This document shows, piece after piece, positions 23,509 to 32,550 of a stretch of 64,000 bases of DNA. Source of the stretch: a phage. Position 1 is the stretch's first letter. The number at the start of each line of letters is the position of its first letter. The DNA lies in sequence record PZ452591.1. The stretch is one strand, 5' to 3'. The translations under genes were made by a program, and so were the position numbers. The notes beneath the pieces were generated by a model. That model ran no database searches, was not told the DNA's origin, and worked only from the letters and a program-made list of their open reading frames with translations.

Positions 23509-23561
23509 CCTCATGTTATGTCAGTAAGAATACTATAACACAACACGAGGGACTTGTAAAC
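23509..23561 (-). repeat. 53-bp direct repeat copy 1 (partner at 39034..39086)
   Basis: cctcatgttatgtcagtaagaatactataacacaacacgagggacttgtaaac versus copy 2 with about 3 mismatches. Confidence 0.8.
23525..23561 (-). promoter_or_regulatory. T4 early-promoter-like element (GTTTAC - 17 bp - TTATAGT) with leader and GAGGAA SD
   Basis: Minus strand GTTTACAAGTCCCTCGTGTTGTGTTATAGTAT...ACATGAGGAACACAAAATG. Confidence 0.6.
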
Positions 23562-25618
23562 TACATTTTGAACTTTTTAGACATTCCGTTGATGTTAACC
23601 AAAGAAGCCAAGATTTGAGAAACTTCGTTTTCCTCTTCTTTTGATTCTTCTACAAGGAATTGATTAAATCCAGCCATTGGACGAACTTCACCAGTTTCCA
23701 TTAGATGGTCTCCATCATATACTGATTCTTCTAATTGTTCAGAAGGAGGAACGATTGTACCTTCAATTAGATACTTGTTATAAGCAGTTTCTTTCATAAA
23801 GTACGTACTTACTTTATTAATCTTCAGTAAAATTCCACGCGGTAGAATAACTTCAGCTTCTGATGGAAATCCTGATAAATGACCTGGAACGATAACTTTG
23901 ATTCGCTCAGCTCCTTTAATTACCATACCCACGCTAGTTTCAGCATCTTCATTAGCATATGTAGAATGACTACCCATATGCATCAAATCTTCTGCATCAA
24001 CGGAATCTTCTCCTTCACCAGAAAATACTGCGCCGGAATCATCTAGAGCCATATAGTTTTTACCATGCTCACCGAAGATATTTGGTTTAAGCGATGTGGA
24101 TACGAAGTTCTTGAAATAAAACATTTTATTTTCAATGTTATGACGCAAAGTTTTAAAGGTAACTTCTTGTCCACGGTAAAGCGTAGTTCCTGGAGGAAGA
24201 ACTGAACCTTTAGCGAATGCAGAATCCAACGTCTCGATGTGCTTAATAGCACGTTCCATATATTCTTCACGGGTAGAATCTGGTTTACCCAAAAGGAACG
24301 AGTTCATTTCAACATATGAATCAGCACAATAATCTTCAATTACGTCAGATTCAGCCTGAGTTAATCCTTTTGGAGTTACTTCGGTGCTTGCGTATTCATA
24401 CGCCTGGGCGGCAGATTCATTAATCAATTTATAAATGCCATTCATGACGAATTGAATAATAGCTGTCTTTTCATCTGGCGTGGCTTTAGAACCTTTAACT
24501 AAATCATTAATAATTTTCTTAATAACATCAAAGCTATTAGAAATATTAATGTCAGCAAGATCGCTTAAAATTTTATCAGTTTTATAATCAAAGAATTCTT
24601 TATTCTTTAAATATTCTTGAGAACCTTGATATGTTATATCGCTCTGCAGCTTGATAGATGGATCACGTAAACGCGCATGGGCCAATGCGATATGATTTCG
24701 GAAGTTTTCTAGTTCATAATCGCTAGATTTAAAACGAGAAGCACTCCTCATACCACCAATAGCTCCTTTGCTGAAGTTTGAACCAATCTGGATAACGCCA
24801 GAGTTCATTGGTCCTTCTGCTTTATATACCGGAACTTTAGATTCAAACTCTTGATATTTCTTGGCAGCGAAGCTATCACCCTGAAGTGAAGCATCGACAG
24901 TAGAATATTGAGCTTGTGCTGCTAATCGACGACTAATTTTAGTTTTCTGAATAACAGCTTGATCCGTGCGCTTATCATTTTCTAAAGCAATAGAAGCAGC
25001 AACAGCAACAGCTTTAGGAACAGCATTACCTGTTTTAACGTCTACATAAACATCACCGACCTTTGATTCAACTTTTGTGAATAACTCAGTTGAAATAGGA
25101 GGTACACCTGGAATGTCTTCTAAATTGGCATTTTTACGGTAAACCATAATATATGCATACTTTTTATCATAATCCCAGATTTCCTTTAAAAGAACATATC
25201 GACCTGCTCCTTTAGTACGTACTAAACGGTCAGCAATAACTTGCATTTGACGAGCTGCGCCATTTGTTTTACTTTTTAGTACGCGGAATAAGCATGCGTC
25301 GATTTTATACTGCTTCATTGTTTGAAGAGCAGTATCAAAAACCGCATTAATGACGCCAATTGGATTTCCACCCAAGTTTCTAAGCTTAACCAGCGATAAT
25401 TTCTCGTTGACGCCTATCATTACGATATGCATCATTTTATCGCCTGGCTTAACGTTTTTATTTGTATCACCGCCAGAGGTGTATGTACAAAATCTAAATC
25501 CAGGAAGCACACTTTCTTCGCCGGCTTGAATAGCAAAAATTTGTGGTATTTTATGCTTAGGATTTAAGTTAACAACCGGCGCCGAAGCGCCGTCAAATAA
25601 TTCTGTAATAAGTTCCAT
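23561..25618 (-). CDS. Alt-like ADP-ribosyltransferase paralog (685 aa)
   Basis: Same length as and N-terminal 220 aa highly similar to alt (MELITELFD...); C-terminal ART-like region with LYRG, FVSTS motifs; central region diverged. Confidence 0.85.
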   Translation of the reverse strand: MELITELFDGASAPVVNLNPKHKIPQIFAIQAGEESVLPGFRFCTYTSGGDTNKNVKPGDKMMHIVMIGVNEKLSLVKLRNLGGNPIGVINAVFDTALQTMKQYKIDACLFRVLKSKTNGAARQMQVIADRLVRTKGAGRYVLLKEIWDYDKKYAYIMVYRKNANLEDIPGVPPISTELFTKVESKVGDVYVDVKTGNAVPKAVAVAASIALENDKRTDQAVIQKTKISRRLAAQAQYSTVDASLQGDSFAAKKYQEFESKVPVYKAEGPMNSGVIQIGSNFSKGAIGGMRSASRFKSSDYELENFRNHIALAHARLRDPSIKLQSDITYQGSQEYLKNKEFFDYKTDKILSDLADINISNSFDVIKKIINDLVKGSKATPDEKTAIIQFVMNGIYKLINESAAQAYEYASTEVTPKGLTQAESDVIEDYCADSYVEMNSFLLGKPDSTREEYMERAIKHIETLDSAFAKGSVLPPGTTLYRGQEVTFKTLRHNIENKMFYFKNFVSTSLKPNIFGEHGKNYMALDDSGAVFSGEGEDSVDAEDLMHMGSHSTYANEDAETSVGMVIKGAERIKVIVPGHLSGFPSEAEVILPRGILLKINKVSTYFMKETAYNKYLIEGTIVPPSEQLEESVYDGDHLMETGEVRPMAGFNQFLVEESKEEENEVSQILASLVNINGMSKKFKM

Positions 25619-25621
25619 GAT

Positions 25622-27679
25622 TTATCCTTGAACGAACTTGTAAGGCATGTTTGTAATATCTATGCAAGACGCAATAATTCCAAGAGATGATTCTACTTTC
25701 TGTTTAACATTTGATGAAACAAATGATGCAAAGTCAACTCTGTCTTCTATTTCAATATCACCTGTCATTGCAACTACTTCGCCGGTTTCCATTAAATGGT
25801 CTCCGTCATAGATTACCGATTCGGTGAGCTCTTCTGTGGTCATAACTTCAGCTTGAATAAGCTTGTTGTTAGTTTTAACTGTTCCATCATTGTAAGATGC
25901 ATCGGTTATTTTATTAACTTTGACCATTAATCCACGTGGCAAAATGACTTCCATTTCATTTGAAGGTGCTAAACTTCCACCTGGTAAAACAACATTGACT
26001 TTATCAGCCCCAGTAATAACCCATCCAATTCCAACTAAATTATCGCTAGAATTTACTAGTCCTTCATCAGTTTTATCAATAGAAACACTTAAACGCTTTT
26101 CGTCTGGTAAAACACCCACAGATGAATCAGTCATCCAGGTACCAAAAATATTTGGATATAATGATGTTGACACAAAATTTCTAAAATAAAAAACTCGATT
26201 TTTTACCAGTGCTTCATATATTGAAGGTAACATTCGTTGTGAACGATACAAAGTAATACCTTTTGGTAATCGTTCACCATTTTTAAAGGCAGAATCTAAA
26301 TTATCAATAGCTTTTTCTATATCAGATGCTGTCAAAATACTTGTACGCTCATCTGGATTATATAATCCCAAAAGAGCGTTATTTATGTCTACATATCCTG
26401 AACCTACGTATTCACGAATTCCGCGTTTTTGTGCCGGTGTGTATTTAGATGAATCTTTATTTTCGACTATAGGATGTAGTGACCATCCAGCGGTAAGAGC
26501 ATATCCACGCAATTCTCTTCGAATAATCTTTGTTTTTATTGCATTCCAAGAATTTTGTACTAACTCATTCACAGCATCTTGATTTAAATGCGAATGCTTG
26601 TTAATGTTTCTTTCTAACCAAGCACCTTTATATTTTTCTAAAGTATCATCAACTATAGAAGCAATAGTTTCTAAAGTTTTTATTGAAGTAATAGATTCTT
26701 TTCGTAATCTTTCTAAAGCTTTATTTTTTATTTCTGCATTAACATCAGATTCTTTATCTTCAGGAATTATAGAAGCTTCTCTGAATGCCATTCCAGCTGT
26801 AACACTACTAAGAGCATTCTCTAATGCAAATCCTGAAGTAGAAATAACAGTTAATTCATTAGCATCAGAAATTAAAGGAGCGTCAGCAGGTTTATTTAAT
26901 TCTGCTGCTGAAGCCTCAAATTTTTGAAACATCGGCGTTTCAAATCTAGAAGATTCCAACGACTGACTTTGCGCAATTGCTCTACGGGAAATTTTAACTT
27001 TAACGATTACAGCTTGGTCAGAACGTTTATCGTTTTCTTGCGCAATAGATGCTGCAATTGCCTCGTTTTTAGTTACTTGAGCTCCAGTATCTTTATTGAT
27101 ATAAACATCACCGACCTTCGATTCAACCTTAGTAAAGAGCTCGGTACTAATTTCCGGAACTCCTGGAATGTCTTCTAGTGATACATTTTTGCGATGTATA
27201 AGAATATATGCATACTTTTTATCATAATCCCAGAGTTCCTTAAGAAGGACGTATCTTCCACCTGAACGACTACGGATAAGTCTATCAGCAATAACTTGAA
27301 TTTGTCGAGCTTGGCCAGCAGTTTTAGACTTAAGAATACGAAGCATACAAGCATCAATTTTATACTGACGCATTGTTTGCATTGCGACAGTAAAAACTGA
27401 ATTGATATAATTAATCGGGCTTGGACCAAGACCTTTTAATTTAGCAATTGAACCTTTAGCAGTTAATGTAAAAGGAACAATGTGCATCATTTTATCGCCC
27501 ATTTTTAAATCGCGATTAGTATCACCTCCAGATGTATAGGTACATAAACGAAAGCCTGGTTGTTCAATTGCATCATCAACGTGAACTGAAAAAATTTGTG
27601 GTATTTTCTTCTTTGGATTTAAGTTTGTAATCGGAAGAGTAGTATCTTCGTCAAATAATTCTGTAATGAGTTCCATCAT
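25622..27679 (-). CDS. alt: Alt, virion-packaged ADP-ribosyltransferase (685 aa)
   Basis: Close match to remembered T4 Alt throughout (MELITELFDEDTTLPITNL ... NMPYKFVQG); two adjacent ATGs at the start. Confidence 0.93.
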   Translation of the reverse strand: MMELITELFDEDTTLPITNLNPKKKIPQIFSVHVDDAIEQPGFRLCTYTSGGDTNRDLKMGDKMMHIVPFTLTAKGSIAKLKGLGPSPINYINSVFTVAMQTMRQYKIDACMLRILKSKTAGQARQIQVIADRLIRSRSGGRYVLLKELWDYDKKYAYILIHRKNVSLEDIPGVPEISTELFTKVESKVGDVYINKDTGAQVTKNEAIAASIAQENDKRSDQAVIVKVKISRRAIAQSQSLESSRFETPMFQKFEASAAELNKPADAPLISDANELTVISTSGFALENALSSVTAGMAFREASIIPEDKESDVNAEIKNKALERLRKESITSIKTLETIASIVDDTLEKYKGAWLERNINKHSHLNQDAVNELVQNSWNAIKTKIIRRELRGYALTAGWSLHPIVENKDSSKYTPAQKRGIREYVGSGYVDINNALLGLYNPDERTSILTASDIEKAIDNLDSAFKNGERLPKGITLYRSQRMLPSIYEALVKNRVFYFRNFVSTSLYPNIFGTWMTDSSVGVLPDEKRLSVSIDKTDEGLVNSSDNLVGIGWVITGADKVNVVLPGGSLAPSNEMEVILPRGLMVKVNKITDASYNDGTVKTNNKLIQAEVMTTEELTESVIYDGDHLMETGEVVAMTGDIEIEDRVDFASFVSSNVKQKVESSLGIIASCIDITNMPYKFVQG

Positions 27680-27730: not shown

Positions 27731-27917
27731 AATAATCTAGTGGTAAGAGAGTACGATATATTTCAAACTTTGGACCTTTTTCATAGGCATCAAATGTTTC
27801 TGTAAATTTATTATAAGCATATGCATCTACAAATTCGAGAACGACTTGTGATACAGAAGTAGAAACATCTCCACCTTCTTTTTGAGCTACGACAACTGTT
27901 TCTAAGTAAGCTTTCAT
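27729..27917 (-). CDS. Hypothetical protein, 62 aa
   Basis: ORF between ligase and alt; overlaps ligase 3' end by 4 nt; terminator hairpin at its stop. Confidence 0.55.
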   Translation of the reverse strand: MKAYLETVVVAQKEGGDVSTSVSQVVLEFVDAYAYNKFTETFDAYEKGPKFEIYRTLLPLDY

Positions 27918-29377
27918 AAACCAGTTACCTCATGAAAATCACCAAATACATCCTCGAATGTATTAGCTTTAGTTTTATCTTCACGTAAACGAATCGCAAT
28001 CGGAAGAAATAATTTGACGTAATCAGTGCGGCCATCAGATTTTAACCAACCGTTACATTCGCACTCTAGAATTTTTCCAATATAATAATTTTGGTTTTCC
28101 ATAATGCGAGTACGGTCAAGTTCATGTGATTTTACGCCGACTTTATCTTTTAAGCCTGAACCGGCATTTACCTTAATTTTTCCACACTCTGACTCAAGAA
28201 TAAATCCACCTGCTTTAGTAGGGTCTTTACGGTGAGGATAAATTCCTACAATTTTTAAATCAACATCAATTACTTCTTTAAATTTATAGAGATTTTTCGA
28301 ACGAGCATTTTCCCATAATCCATCGATATTTTTGAGAATAATACCTTCAAGACCTTGGTCAATATACTTTTTATAAATTACCTTAGCTTCATCTAGGTTA
28401 TTTACTACCTGGTTTTCAATTAAAATTACTTTATCATAGCCTGATGTCATTTGTTCTAATTTAGAAAAACGTACATCATATTTCAAGCGAAATGCTGGAA
28501 GACCGTATATTTCTACCAACGGGACATAATCCCAGACCTGAAACTTCATGCATTGAGCTTCTTTTTCGGAAATGGTTCCCTTTAAAGATTTATTGGCGAT
28601 TCCATTAGAAGCAGTACGTGATTCAGCTACTTCGGCGAATTCTTTAACTTTACTGTTTTCAGGATAAGCATCAAAAAGAAAATCTAAGCCTTCTGGCTCC
28701 TTTTTAACTTGCTCATGGTATACCAATTCGCCATCAATTAACACACCTTCTGGATGAATCTGGCGGGCCTCAGCGGTCATTTTGATTAATTCTTCCTTAA
28801 GAAGATCTAATCCTAAATATTCATTGCCAGCTCGTGATAAAAGACGAACATCATCTAATTCATCACCTCTGACTTCGGCAAAGCACCGAGCCCCATCAGC
28901 TTTTAACTGGGCAAAAGCTGGAAATTTGATATTCTTATTAATGCCTTTTTCATCATAAGAACTTGCCAGCATTTGAGGTTGTTCAGGAATTAAACCTGGC
29001 CAAACTTTGTTTGCAATAGATACTGAAGCACCGCATTCAAGGTCTCGCATCATCACTCGACGCAAGACTTCAACATCATCCTTTTTACCATCGGCGATAT
29101 ATCCAGTTAATTCCTCAATTGCCGCATTTCCAGTCAATTTCCGAGTAGCTAACGTGAATTCAATGAAGTCAAGCATATCGGTAAGAGTCAACATTCCAAA
29201 ACTCTGGGTAGCAATACCAGGTTTAGGCCATTTCTTGATATAATACTGCAATCCACGAGAATAAGTCAGACGATATACCCGTTTAAGCAATTCATTATCT
29301 TTATTCTTTTCAAGAATTGCTTGCTTCTGCTTAGTTGAACCAATAGATGCTATTTCGTTCAGAATTTTAAGAATCAT
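27914..29377 (-). CDS. 30: ATP-dependent DNA ligase gp30 (487 aa)
   Basis: Matches T4 DNA ligase; adenylation motif KADGAR. Confidence 0.95.
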   Translation of the reverse strand: MILKILNEIASIGSTKQKQAILEKNKDNELLKRVYRLTYSRGLQYYIKKWPKPGIATQSFGMLTLTDMLDFIEFTLATRKLTGNAAIEELTGYIADGKKDDVEVLRRVMMRDLECGASVSIANKVWPGLIPEQPQMLASSYDEKGINKNIKFPAFAQLKADGARCFAEVRGDELDDVRLLSRAGNEYLGLDLLKEELIKMTAEARQIHPEGVLIDGELVYHEQVKKEPEGLDFLFDAYPENSKVKEFAEVAESRTASNGIANKSLKGTISEKEAQCMKFQVWDYVPLVEIYGLPAFRLKYDVRFSKLEQMTSGYDKVILIENQVVNNLDEAKVIYKKYIDQGLEGIILKNIDGLWENARSKNLYKFKEVIDVDLKIVGIYPHRKDPTKAGGFILESECGKIKVNAGSGLKDKVGVKSHELDRTRIMENQNYYIGKILECECNGWLKSDGRTDYVKLFLPIAIRLREDKTKANTFEDVFGDFHEVTGL

Positions 29378-29643
29378 TATTCATCCTTCAGAGTTTGGTT
29401 TACAGCTCTATTATAAATCAATTCATCATTAAGCTCAGTCAAAGACCTATGATATGTGGTTCTAACTTTATTTCCTTGCATCCAGTGCTTGACGTAAATG
29501 AAACCTTGCTCTACGCATTTTTTAAAAATTCGTTCGTCTTTTTGAGCTCGAAATTCTGGATTGCATCTAAAAAATTGATTTACGTGACCGTAATCACGTG
29601 TAGTATTACCTTCATTTTCATAAATAGTGTGAACAACAAACAT
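29377..29643 (-). CDS. Hypothetical protein (positional equivalent of T4 30.1), 88 aa
   Basis: ORF, synteny. Confidence 0.7.
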   Translation of the reverse strand: MFVVHTIYENEGNTTRDYGHVNQFFRCNPEFRAQKDERIFKKCVEQGFIYVKHWMQGNKVRTTYHRSLTELNDELIYNRAVNQTLKDE

Positions 29644-30497
29644 TAGAATGCTCCTTGGAAAATATTATCACCACTACCACTAGTAAGTCTATTAAAATAC
29701 CCTGCATCGCCAGGCTTAATATAACTCCATGTATGGAATGGATGCATCTGGTGTGAGTGCGTATAATATGGATGATATGGATTATAAGGATTAAATCCAG
29801 GAGTTCTCCAGGTAGTGTTCCAAGGAAAAGAATCGTTTTTAATCATCTTCTCAATTACATCTTTTATAGCTTTTTCACTATCAAAACTTTCTTTATTTTC
29901 CTTTGGTGAAAAAAGCTTATTCTCTACATCATTCCATGTATAAACTCGCTGAGCAGTTTTTGGAATATTGTCACGCTCCCCTCGAGCCATCCAATAAACA
30001 GGAACACTTAATATTTCACTCGCATGATCGCAGTGGTGAGCGAGATCGTCAATATAACAAATTACGTTATATTTCTCTTTTGCCTTTTTGAACAACTCTT
30101 CTTTTGAAGAATCATGACTACACATCAGTACTTCTGAGAAGGCACCAGGAAAAAGAGCATTCAAATTAAATTGACGATTCAGCAGAGCGTCAATAGAATC
30201 ACCCAGTGCTGTAACAGCTACAAAATTATAATCTTCTTTTAATTTATTGATTACACACAAGGCATCTTTATACGGAGACAAGTAACGAATAAAATCTGAA
30301 CGATTGTATTTTTCAATTAACTTGACGCCAAGTTCTTCATCACAATTAAAAAGTTTACCTGGAGAAATAAATTTCTCATCTTGTATCATTTTTAAAATAT
30401 GTTCTAACGGAAGATTATATTTCTGAGCAAAATAAGGAAGACCTGATTGCCAGCTTAAACATACTCCATCAATATCGGTTAAAATAGTAGGCTTCAT
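29643..30497 (-). CDS. HAD-superfamily-like protein with Pro/Tyr/His-rich C-terminal tail (positional equivalent of T4 30.2), 284 aa
   Basis: N-terminal ILTDIDGV resembles HAD motif I (DxDG); C-terminus NPYNPYHPYYTHSHQMHPFHTW low complexity. Confidence 0.7.
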   Translation of the reverse strand: MKPTILTDIDGVCLSWQSGLPYFAQKYNLPLEHILKMIQDEKFISPGKLFNCDEELGVKLIEKYNRSDFIRYLSPYKDALCVINKLKEDYNFVAVTALGDSIDALLNRQFNLNALFPGAFSEVLMCSHDSSKEELFKKAKEKYNVICYIDDLAHHCDHASEILSVPVYWMARGERDNIPKTAQRVYTWNDVENKLFSPKENKESFDSEKAIKDVIEKMIKNDSFPWNTTWRTPGFNPYNPYHPYYTHSHQMHPFHTWSYIKPGDAGYFNRLTSGSGDNIFQGAF

Positions 30498-30952
30498 AGA
30501 GAGTCTCTTAATAGGTTTAACACATCAATAAATTCAGCTTCGGTTAGTATTGTATCATCTTTTGTTAGACCACTAGCCATGCTGTGCTTCAAAACTTTTC
30601 CTTTCGAGGCTTGTAATGCATCACGAAAGCCCTTGTTTTGGATCGCTGCTTCAAAATATGCATTTGTGTATAATTCTTTCCACGCCGGGGAGTATCTTGA
30701 AAACGGAACTCCAAGCCAGAAGAGGGTCCCACGGTCCTGAGCTCTAGCATAAGACCTTCCAGCTTGTTGGGCGGCAAGCCCGGATAACCCAAATATACGA
30801 CGTTGTTGTTCAACATTTTTCACCTTGCATCCTTGGAGGAATCCTTCAAGACCTCCAAATTGAATACCATCCATAACGAAAGGCCAATGGGCGAAATTAC
30901 TTAATGCACATGATGGCCACCTAAAATTACTTCTAATCTCTAACTCAGACAT
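30494..30952 (-). CDS. NADAR/YbiA-like protein (positional equivalent of T4 30.3), 152 aa from first ATG
   Basis: ORF-track start is TTG; ATG two codons downstream; motif SNFAHWPF resembles FSNFAAWP of the YbiA/NADAR family. Confidence 0.65.
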   Translation of the reverse strand: MSELEIRSNFRWPSCALSNFAHWPFVMDGIQFGGLEGFLQGCKVKNVEQQRRIFGLSGLAAQQAGRSYARAQDRGTLFWLGVPFSRYSPAWKELYTNAYFEAAIQNKGFRDALQASKGKVLKHSMASGLTKDDTILTEAEFIDVLNLLRDSL

Positions 30953-31151
30953 TTTCAATGCTTATAATTTCAACATCAGCCCAATGACCATAGTTTGGTA
31001 GACGAAATTCAACTGGCCAGTCACTGCCTTTTTCTAATATAATAGACTCAACTTGTGGTTCTTCATGTTCATCAGTATATGGATTTTTATCTGTTACTTT
31101 ATATGTGACCTTAATGTACTGAATTCCAAAAATCTTATTAATTATATTCAT
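30945..31151 (-). CDS. Hypothetical protein, 68 aa
   Basis: ORF with ATG start, overlapping neighbours in operon-like array. Confidence 0.6.
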   Translation of the reverse strand: MNIINKIFGIQYIKVTYKVTDKNPYTDEHEEPQVESIILEKGSDWPVEFRLPNYGHWADVEIISIENV

Positions 31152-32106: not shown

Positions 32107-32439
32107 TTATTTTACTACTTTCCAATGCTGCATGTCAAGTTTACCAACTTTTTTCATCTTCTCAATTAAGCGTTCAGCACGTTGGCGAGCTGTAACATAA
32201 TGCCATTCGCCTAATTCATTTTGTTCAATTTTTCCAACGATTACTGTATTCAATTCATAAATCCAACCAGTAAAGAAATTATGAACTTGAACTGTAAAGG
32301 TGAAATCTGTTCCCATACCTTCTGTTGTTTCTACTTCAATAATATCACCTTCAACTGCCATTAAGAACCACATAGTTTCATTATATTTACCATTGAAGCA
32401 TTTAGTTTTAACTGTAGCGTTCAGATTAATCGTTTTCAT
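32107..32439 (-). CDS. Hypothetical protein, 110 aa
   Basis: ORF with ATG start; early-promoter-like element upstream. Confidence 0.65.
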   Translation of the reverse strand: MKTINLNATVKTKCFNGKYNETMWFLMAVEGDIIEVETTEGMGTDFTFTVQVHNFFTGWIYELNTVIVGKIEQNELGEWHYVTARQRAERLIEKMKKVGKLDMQHWKVVK

Positions 32440-32517: not shown

Positions 32518-32545
32518 AAATAAAAAAGGACTCCCGAAGGAGTCC
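32518..32545 (-). terminator. Rho-independent terminator after the small basic protein gene
   Basis: GGACTCC-CGAA-GGAGTCC hairpin followed by TTTTTT on minus strand. Confidence 0.8.
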
Positions 32546-32550
32546 TCAAC

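Follow-up and report, generated by a model that had tools for sequence, protein, structure and literature searches.

The window, i.e., the whole 64-kb stretch of phage DNA that was analysed, belongs to a Tequatrovirus. On its minus strand, an ORF at 30494..30952 (stop included) runs from an ATG start and encodes a protein of 152 aa. The mechanical ORF list opened this frame two codons upstream, at a TTG at 30958; that start was dropped in favor of the ATG at 30952 because the latter agrees with the T4 annotation and with the published numbering of Glu36 and Lys43. The 2.4-kb stretch around the ORF is matched by 679 phage records (best identity, 97%), nearly all of them from T4-like phages of Escherichia, Shigella, or Yersinia. 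The window is collinear with the T4 gene order, 30 (ligase), 30.1, 30.2, 30.3 (with the annotated internal ORF 30.3'), and 30.4 onward, and the ORF is therefore gene 30.3, now named adfN. All genes of the 30.9-to-30 cluster lie on the minus strand, and the ligase gene (27914..29377, minus strand) is found two genes downstream of adfN, with 30.2 and 30.1 between them. The features discussed below are the following.

30494..30952, minus strand: adfN (gene 30.3) coding sequence, 152 aa plus TGA stop, assigned by its PF08010 match and near-identity to T4 gp30.3
30945..30952, minus strand: stop of gene 30.4 (TGA, 30945-30947) overlapping the adfN start (ATG, 30950-30952), read from the sequence and the same in the T4 annotation
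30878..30901, minus strand: SNFAHWPF motif, residues 18-25, the N-terminal NADAR signature, aligning to FSNFAAWPI of YbiA
30845..30847, minus strand: codon GAA of the predicted catalytic Glu36, aligning to the Glu of TSEHYFQ in YbiA
30824..30826, minus strand: codon AAG of the predicted catalytic Lys43, aligning to the Lys of QAQKF in YbiA
30584..30586, minus strand: codon CAC of His123 at the end of the last β-strand, in place of the YbiA Glu and the DarG1 Asp, from the family alignment and the model
30497..30541, minus strand: C-terminal α-helix, residues 138-152 (helix 138-151 in the model)
30494..30497, minus strand: ATGA in which the adfN stop overlaps the start of gene 30.2, read from the sequence
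29643..30497, minus strand: gene 30.2, 284 aa, a predicted HAD phosphatase, from the AlphaFold2 model and Foldseek

The ATGA overlap is kept in T4, RB69, and CLB_P2 and is not found in more distant genera. Together with the same-strand arrangement of the cluster, these start/stop overlaps suggest co-expression and translational coupling of the genes. A scan for promoters and terminators finds 25 promoter-like sites in the region versus 24.6 expected by chance, and no claim about transcription units is therefore made. The best such site (TTGACA-18-TAAAAT, 11/12 matches; 32109..32138, minus strand) immediately precedes the genes running from 30.7 to 30. About 400 bases upstream of this site is a strong terminator-like hairpin (32526..32547, minus strand), a 9-bp stem, GAGGACTCC-TTCG-GGAGTCCTT, with a T run after it. 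In the window, T4, and CLB_P2, the internal alternate-frame ORF 30.3' (75 aa; 30589..30816, minus strand) is uninterrupted, whereas in RB69 it contains a stop. It was rejected as a second product: over the same bases, its amino acid identity is 63-76% versus 84-95% in the adfN frame, so that there is no sign of independent selection.

The product of the ORF has the same length as T4 gp30.3 and is identical to it at 150 of 152 positions (98.7%), Q22H and I125M being the only substitutions. It is 100% identical to the proteins of Shigella phage SHFML-26 and Escherichia phage vB_EcoM_Shinka, and the Shinka copy is annotated as "NADAR domain containing protein" beside a "putative phosphatase." At least 99% identity in gp30.3 is seen in 144 phage records, and the family as a whole is found in 1,511 phage records from many host genera. 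Among the listed phage records with gene 30.3, most label its product "hypothetical protein," which should be replaced with adfN (anti-DarT1 NADAR). The gene is thus already known as adfN, gene 30.3 of T4-type phages, and the window contains no new biology beyond the published accounts (PMC11825919, PMC11125620, PMC11543638).

Database searches place the protein in the Pfam family Phage_30_3 (PF08010; E = 7.4e-70; a full-length match covering profile positions 1-138 of 138 with 233.6 bits, the curated cutoff being 36) and in the PHROGs family phrog_652, listed there as of unknown function (E = 1.2e-51). The Pfam search gives no match to the NADAR domain (PF08719) even at an E value of up to 1, NCBIfam and PADLOC give no match to the protein, and a single-sequence search of solved structures returns only noise (PDB entry 3RJZ, E = 0.61). 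The PF08719 search is negative because Pfam files this protein under the separate family PF08010. Without a direct match to a NADAR model, membership in the superfamily therefore rests on transitive and structural evidence. When 43 diverse members of the family, spanning 34-87% identity to the query, were searched individually, 17 of them matched PF08719, the best with E = 1.5e-7. A profile of the family, compared with solved structures, has Escherichia coli YbiA (2B3W) as its best match (E = 0.0019), with SNFA-x-x-P, E36, Q40, and K43 aligned to FSNFAAWP...SEHYFQAQKF of YbiA. The AlphaFold2 model built on the family alignment (mean pLDDT, 92.6; pTM, 0.87) contains the YbiA fold, a helical core flanked by small sheets. 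Exactly three PDB entries match it in Foldseek with a probability of about 1: YbiA 2B3W, the best (E = 5e-5, TM 0.68), the P. nicotianae NADAR 8BAU, and the G. lovleyi NADAR 8BAT; all remaining matches have E > 2.8. By the profile and model evidence, the protein clearly belongs to the NADAR superfamily, with a confidently predicted NADAR fold.

The original prediction had described a 152-aa NADAR/YbiA-like protein at 30494-30952 on the strength of its SNFAHWPF, likened to FSNFAAWP of YbiA. The ORF and its motif are there, on the minus strand at residues 18-25, and the YbiA motif that it had cited is present in the solved chain 2B3W, to which the family profile aligns it. The assignment itself is borne out by YbiA as the best profile match, by Foldseek matches that are all NADAR-fold structures, and by the 17 of 43 relatives with PF08719 matches. 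The Pfam check that it had proposed divides: the window protein does not match PF08719, and the matches of the relatives and of the family profile point to the superfamily. A predicted fold unrelated to YbiA, which it had named as grounds for rejection, was not what the structure prediction gave. It had likewise named the absence of a NADAR profile hit, which would lead to a wrong rejection here because the protein lacks a PF08719 match and still has the NADAR fold. Taken on its own, a PF08719 search is a false negative for the PF08010 family, and this serves as a methodological warning.

Within the N-terminal motif, S18, N19, F20, and F25 are invariant across the family. Six-frame translation of the window yields a single SNFA.WP, and 200 shuffled windows yield none. 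The motif matches that of T4 except at position 22, H here and Q in T4, and this family column varies among H, K, Q, P, L, G, and A. The original prediction had called for a check of the catalytic residues, and E36, K43, and H123 are all present. E36 is invariant in 44/44 family members, and its replacement in the T4 protein (E36A) abolishes catalytic activity (PMC11825919). K43 is kept in at least 90% of the 44 sequences, and K43A weakens the counter-defence of T4 AdfN (PMC11825919). H123, invariant in the 44 sequences, closes the predicted strand 120-123. In the structure of the P. nicotianae NADAR with ADP-ribose, E43 and E125 hold the distal ribose (PMC11543638). The equivalent of E125 is Asp in the DarT1-linked NADARs and His in the phage NADARs, where this last-strand His defines the family (PMC11125620, PMC11543638, PMC12945103).

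[quoted passage not shown] In the inactive RB69 allele, a T insertion at gene position 411 causes the loss of this helix (PMC11825919). In the DNA alignment, the insertion (ACTAACTTGA) corresponds to window position 30542 and is not found in the window, T4, or CLB_P2; the window therefore encodes helix 138-151. M125, two residues after H123, is the family consensus (HSMG). As position 22 is variable and M125 matches the consensus, Q22H and I125M are unlikely, judging from the family alignment, to affect function.

The closest known system is T4 AdfN itself (gp30.3, "phage NADAR"), which shares with the window protein the catalytic E36, K43, and H123, the intact C-terminal helix, and a genomic position that is flanked by 30.4 and 30.2 and lies upstream of ligase, and differs only in Q22H and I125M. 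The DarG1 proteins (e.g., G. lovleyi NADAR, PDB ID 8BAT, and E. coli C7 NADAR) are DarT1-associated antitoxins, whereas the neighbors of the window gene are 30.4 and the HAD phosphatase gene 30.2, with no DarT1 toxin gene among them, and PADLOC gives no matches for 30.3 or 30.2. In the absence of an adjacent DarT gene, the window NADAR is thus an orphan. DarG1 further carries an extension at the N terminus, and its catalytic residue in the last strand is Asp, in contrast to the 152-aa core-only domain of the window protein, with its motif starting at residue 18 and its last-strand His; T4 AdfN cannot replace DarG1 in uninfected cells (PMC11125620, PMC11825919). YbiA (2B3W) and the P. nicotianae NADAR (8BAU) have 16-20% sequence identity to the window protein and carry a Glu in the last strand where the phage protein has a His. 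The role of YbiA is a housekeeping one, in riboflavin metabolism. The phage protein is a bare core domain (PMC12945103). AdfN(Bas32) and AdfN(Bas60) of T5-like and Vequintavirinae phages are likewise orphan phage NADARs that reverse DarT1 guanine ADP-ribosylation; however, their origin is independent, in other NADAR clades, and they work without a T-even factor, even in uninfected E. coli. AdfA (T4/RB69) and AdfB (ICP1) also belong to phage counter-defence against DarTG (PMC11825919), but these are small non-enzymatic proteins of an unrelated fold, encoded elsewhere in the genome, and they seem to block the DarT toxin through an interaction with it.

The function of the T4 protein has been described by Johannesman et al. 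(2025), who renamed gp30.3 AdfN, a NADAR-superfamily DNA ADP-ribosylglycohydrolase (PMC11825919). In chimeras of T2 or T4 with RB69, DarTG1 resistance maps to the 3' part of 30.3; adfN is required by both T4 and T2 for this resistance, and ectopic adfN(T4) allows RB69 to form plaques on DarTG1 hosts (PMC11825919). The E36A and K43A mutants and the RB69-like truncation are impaired, a two-hybrid assay reveals no interaction between AdfN and DarT1, and purified AdfN, but not its E36A mutant, removes ADP-ribose from DarT1-modified DNA (PMC11825919). In vitro, T4 NADAR removes ADP-ribose from guanine and not from thymidine (PMC11125620) or cytidine (PMC12945103), and published data show that the T4 protein does not counter DarTG2. 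AdfN(T4) does not rescue uninfected E. coli from DarT1 toxicity (PMC11125620, PMC11825919), only weakly rescues T5 and Bas25, and is fully effective only during T-even infection (PMC11825919). As DNA hypermodification is not the reason for this, a T-even factor has been postulated (PMC11825919). The Methods (section 4.2) of PMC11125620 give the T4 gp30.3 construct as "residues 1-208," versus 152 aa in the T4 gene and the window allele; this figure may include tag residues or be a typo.

With a probability of about 0.93, the ORF is an intact adfN allele that encodes a core-only NADAR enzyme reversing DarT1 guanine ADP-ribosylation and thereby countering DarTG1. Orthology, intactness, residues, and fold come directly from the analyses above; catalysis by the window allele and its DarTG1 phenotype would be expected from near-identity to the T4 protein, the conserved residues, the helix, and the predicted fold. 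In an infected DarTG1 host, the DarT1 toxin would ADP-ribosylate guanine bases of the phage DNA and so block its replication. AdfN would then hydrolyse the N-glycosidic linkage between guanine and ADP-ribose, acting on the product without binding the toxin, and the unmodified DNA that it restores would allow the phage to replicate. A remover of guanine ADP-ribose with a role in phage anti-defence is what the original prediction had proposed, and this is the published function of the 98.7% identical T4 ortholog; an experimentally validated anti-defence gene was thus recovered by reading the sequence alone.

A broader target, with the enzyme mainly reversing guanine ADP-ribosylation of DNA or RNA by other ARTs (ScARP/pierisin-like toxins or RNA-targeting defence ARTs) instead of or besides DarT1, is possible, if somewhat doubtful. 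NADARs act on the adduct regardless of the toxin that made it, and all NADAR families, the phage one included, remove ScARP-made guanine-linked ADP-ribose from DNA and reportedly from RNA too (PMC12945103, PMC11125620). Other targets have also been proposed by the authors of PMC11825919, and the spread of the gp30.3 family over 1,511 phage records and many host genera is probably wider than that of DarTG1. On the other hand, the in vivo phenotype has been demonstrated solely against DarTG1 (PMC11825919). A broader range of substrates extends the anti-DarTG1 explanation and is compatible with it rather than an alternative to it. T-even phages are not known to be restricted by any other guanine-targeting defence ART. 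A weakened or dead allele, comparable to the RB69 gene, is highly unlikely: Q22H falls within the SNFAxWP motif and I125M just past H123, both near functional motifs, and disrupted alleles do occur naturally (the RB69 frameshift and shortened clusters of 86-126 aa), but the frame is full length with every invariant residue in place, the two substitutions fall at a variable position and on the family consensus, and the identical protein is kept in independent isolates, in addition to the 144 records with at least 99% identity.

It is extremely improbable that the protein is a YbiA-type housekeeping N-glycosidase acting on riboflavin-pathway intermediates rather than DNA. YbiA is its closest solved structure in Foldseek as well as its best profile match, and YbiA-type proteins have a role in riboflavin metabolism (PMC11543638, PMC11825919). 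However, the last-strand Glu that defines the YbiA subfamily is replaced with His123, the published phylogeny places the T4-type cluster nearest the DarG1-type NADARs, and the T4 protein has a demonstrated DNA de-ADP-ribosylation activity and anti-DarTG1 phenotype (PMC11825919). A role in reversing or tuning the phage's own ADP-ribosylation by Alt, ModA, or ModB is very improbable as well. The nearness to ligase and Alt genes noted in the original prediction is real: besides the ligase gene, two Alt-like ART genes are found 2.8-7 kb away on the same strand (25622..27679 and 23561..25618), and Acj61 and RB69 also have an Alt-like gene near 30.3. The functional tie that it implied does not follow from this proximity, which reflects shared Straboviridae synteny. 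Alt is annotated in T4 as a modifier of RNA polymerase, i.e., of a protein, whereas the substrates of T4 NADAR are guanine adducts of nucleic acids (PMC11125620, PMC12945103). There is no alt gene within 4-5 kb of 30.3 in KVP40, RSP15, or a 308-kb metagenomic contig, and the linkage to Alt follows the ancestral Straboviridae gene order around the ligase gene. As for ligase, the base is intact after de-ADP-ribosylation, and ligation is therefore not needed.

The two tandem Alt-like genes each encode a full-length ADP-ribosyltransferase of 685 aa (42% mutual identity). The ligase-proximal copy is the ortholog of T4 Alt (98%), and the distal one is an intact paralog. Over its first 116 aa, this paralog matches the T4 small ORFs alt.-1 and alt.-2 at 95-97%, so that this phage keeps whole a gene that survives in T4 only as remnants.

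The product of the adjacent gene 30.2 has no match in Pfam, NCBIfam, or PADLOC. Its residues 1 to ~220 adopt a HAD fold in the AlphaFold2 model, with pLDDT >90 through about residue 190, and its closest functionally specific Foldseek matches include the 5'(3')-deoxyribonucleotidases 2JAO, 2I7D, and 3BWV (E ~1e-7). The motif residues D8 and D10 (DxD), K132, D150, and D151 are invariant, and the tail (225-284) is disordered, rich in Pro, Asn, Tyr, and His, and varies in length between phages. On the basis of the model, gp30.2 is confidently predicted to be a HAD-superfamily phosphatase. It is the most obvious candidate if the T-even factor for AdfN is encoded in the ligase-proximal cluster, which seems quite unlikely; gp30.2 is carried by both RB69 and T4, and in Tevenvirinae it is its start codon that overlaps the adfN stop (ATGA).

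The conservation of gp30.2 was followed by local tblastn over 12 loci. Wherever found, it is encoded directly upstream of ligase; 1-5 genes lie between it and 30.3 in Acj61, Matisse, and SJ_PmiM, and the 30.3 loci of Phi1, KVP40, RSP15, and the metagenomic contig lack it. As a conserved partner of 30.3, gp30.2 was rejected: it tracks the ligase gene, which makes the 30.3-30.2 adjacency a matter of inherited gene order rather than a conserved module of two genes. A 254-aa gene downstream of a distant 30.3 homolog, also considered, is unrelated to gp30.2. In several genera of Straboviridae, the 30.3 homolog has its place upstream of DNA ligase, from which 0-6 genes separate it; in Phi1, the two genes are immediate neighbors. 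In KVP40, a single small ORF separates the homolog from genes 47/46 (Mre11/Rad50-like nuclease), which lie just downstream of it; in RSP15 (Ackermannviridae), it is part of a tRNA cluster; and in the metagenomic contig, NUDIX and Thg1-like genes are found nearby. A NUDIX gene is likewise present in Acj61, about 3 kb from 30.3.

An intact adfN allele predicts resistance of the phage to DarTG1-type defence, which is of use for host-range prediction and for the choice of phages for therapy. Many public gp30.3 products are shortened or mis-fused (86-126 aa, 80-98% identical; clusters P0004-P0007, P0013-P0018, and P0049), e.g., those of SV76, NR1, UGJNEcP4, and RPN226. These suggest that T4-like phages have repeatedly lost AdfN through frameshifts of the RB69 kind, with mutation and assembly error both possible as the source.
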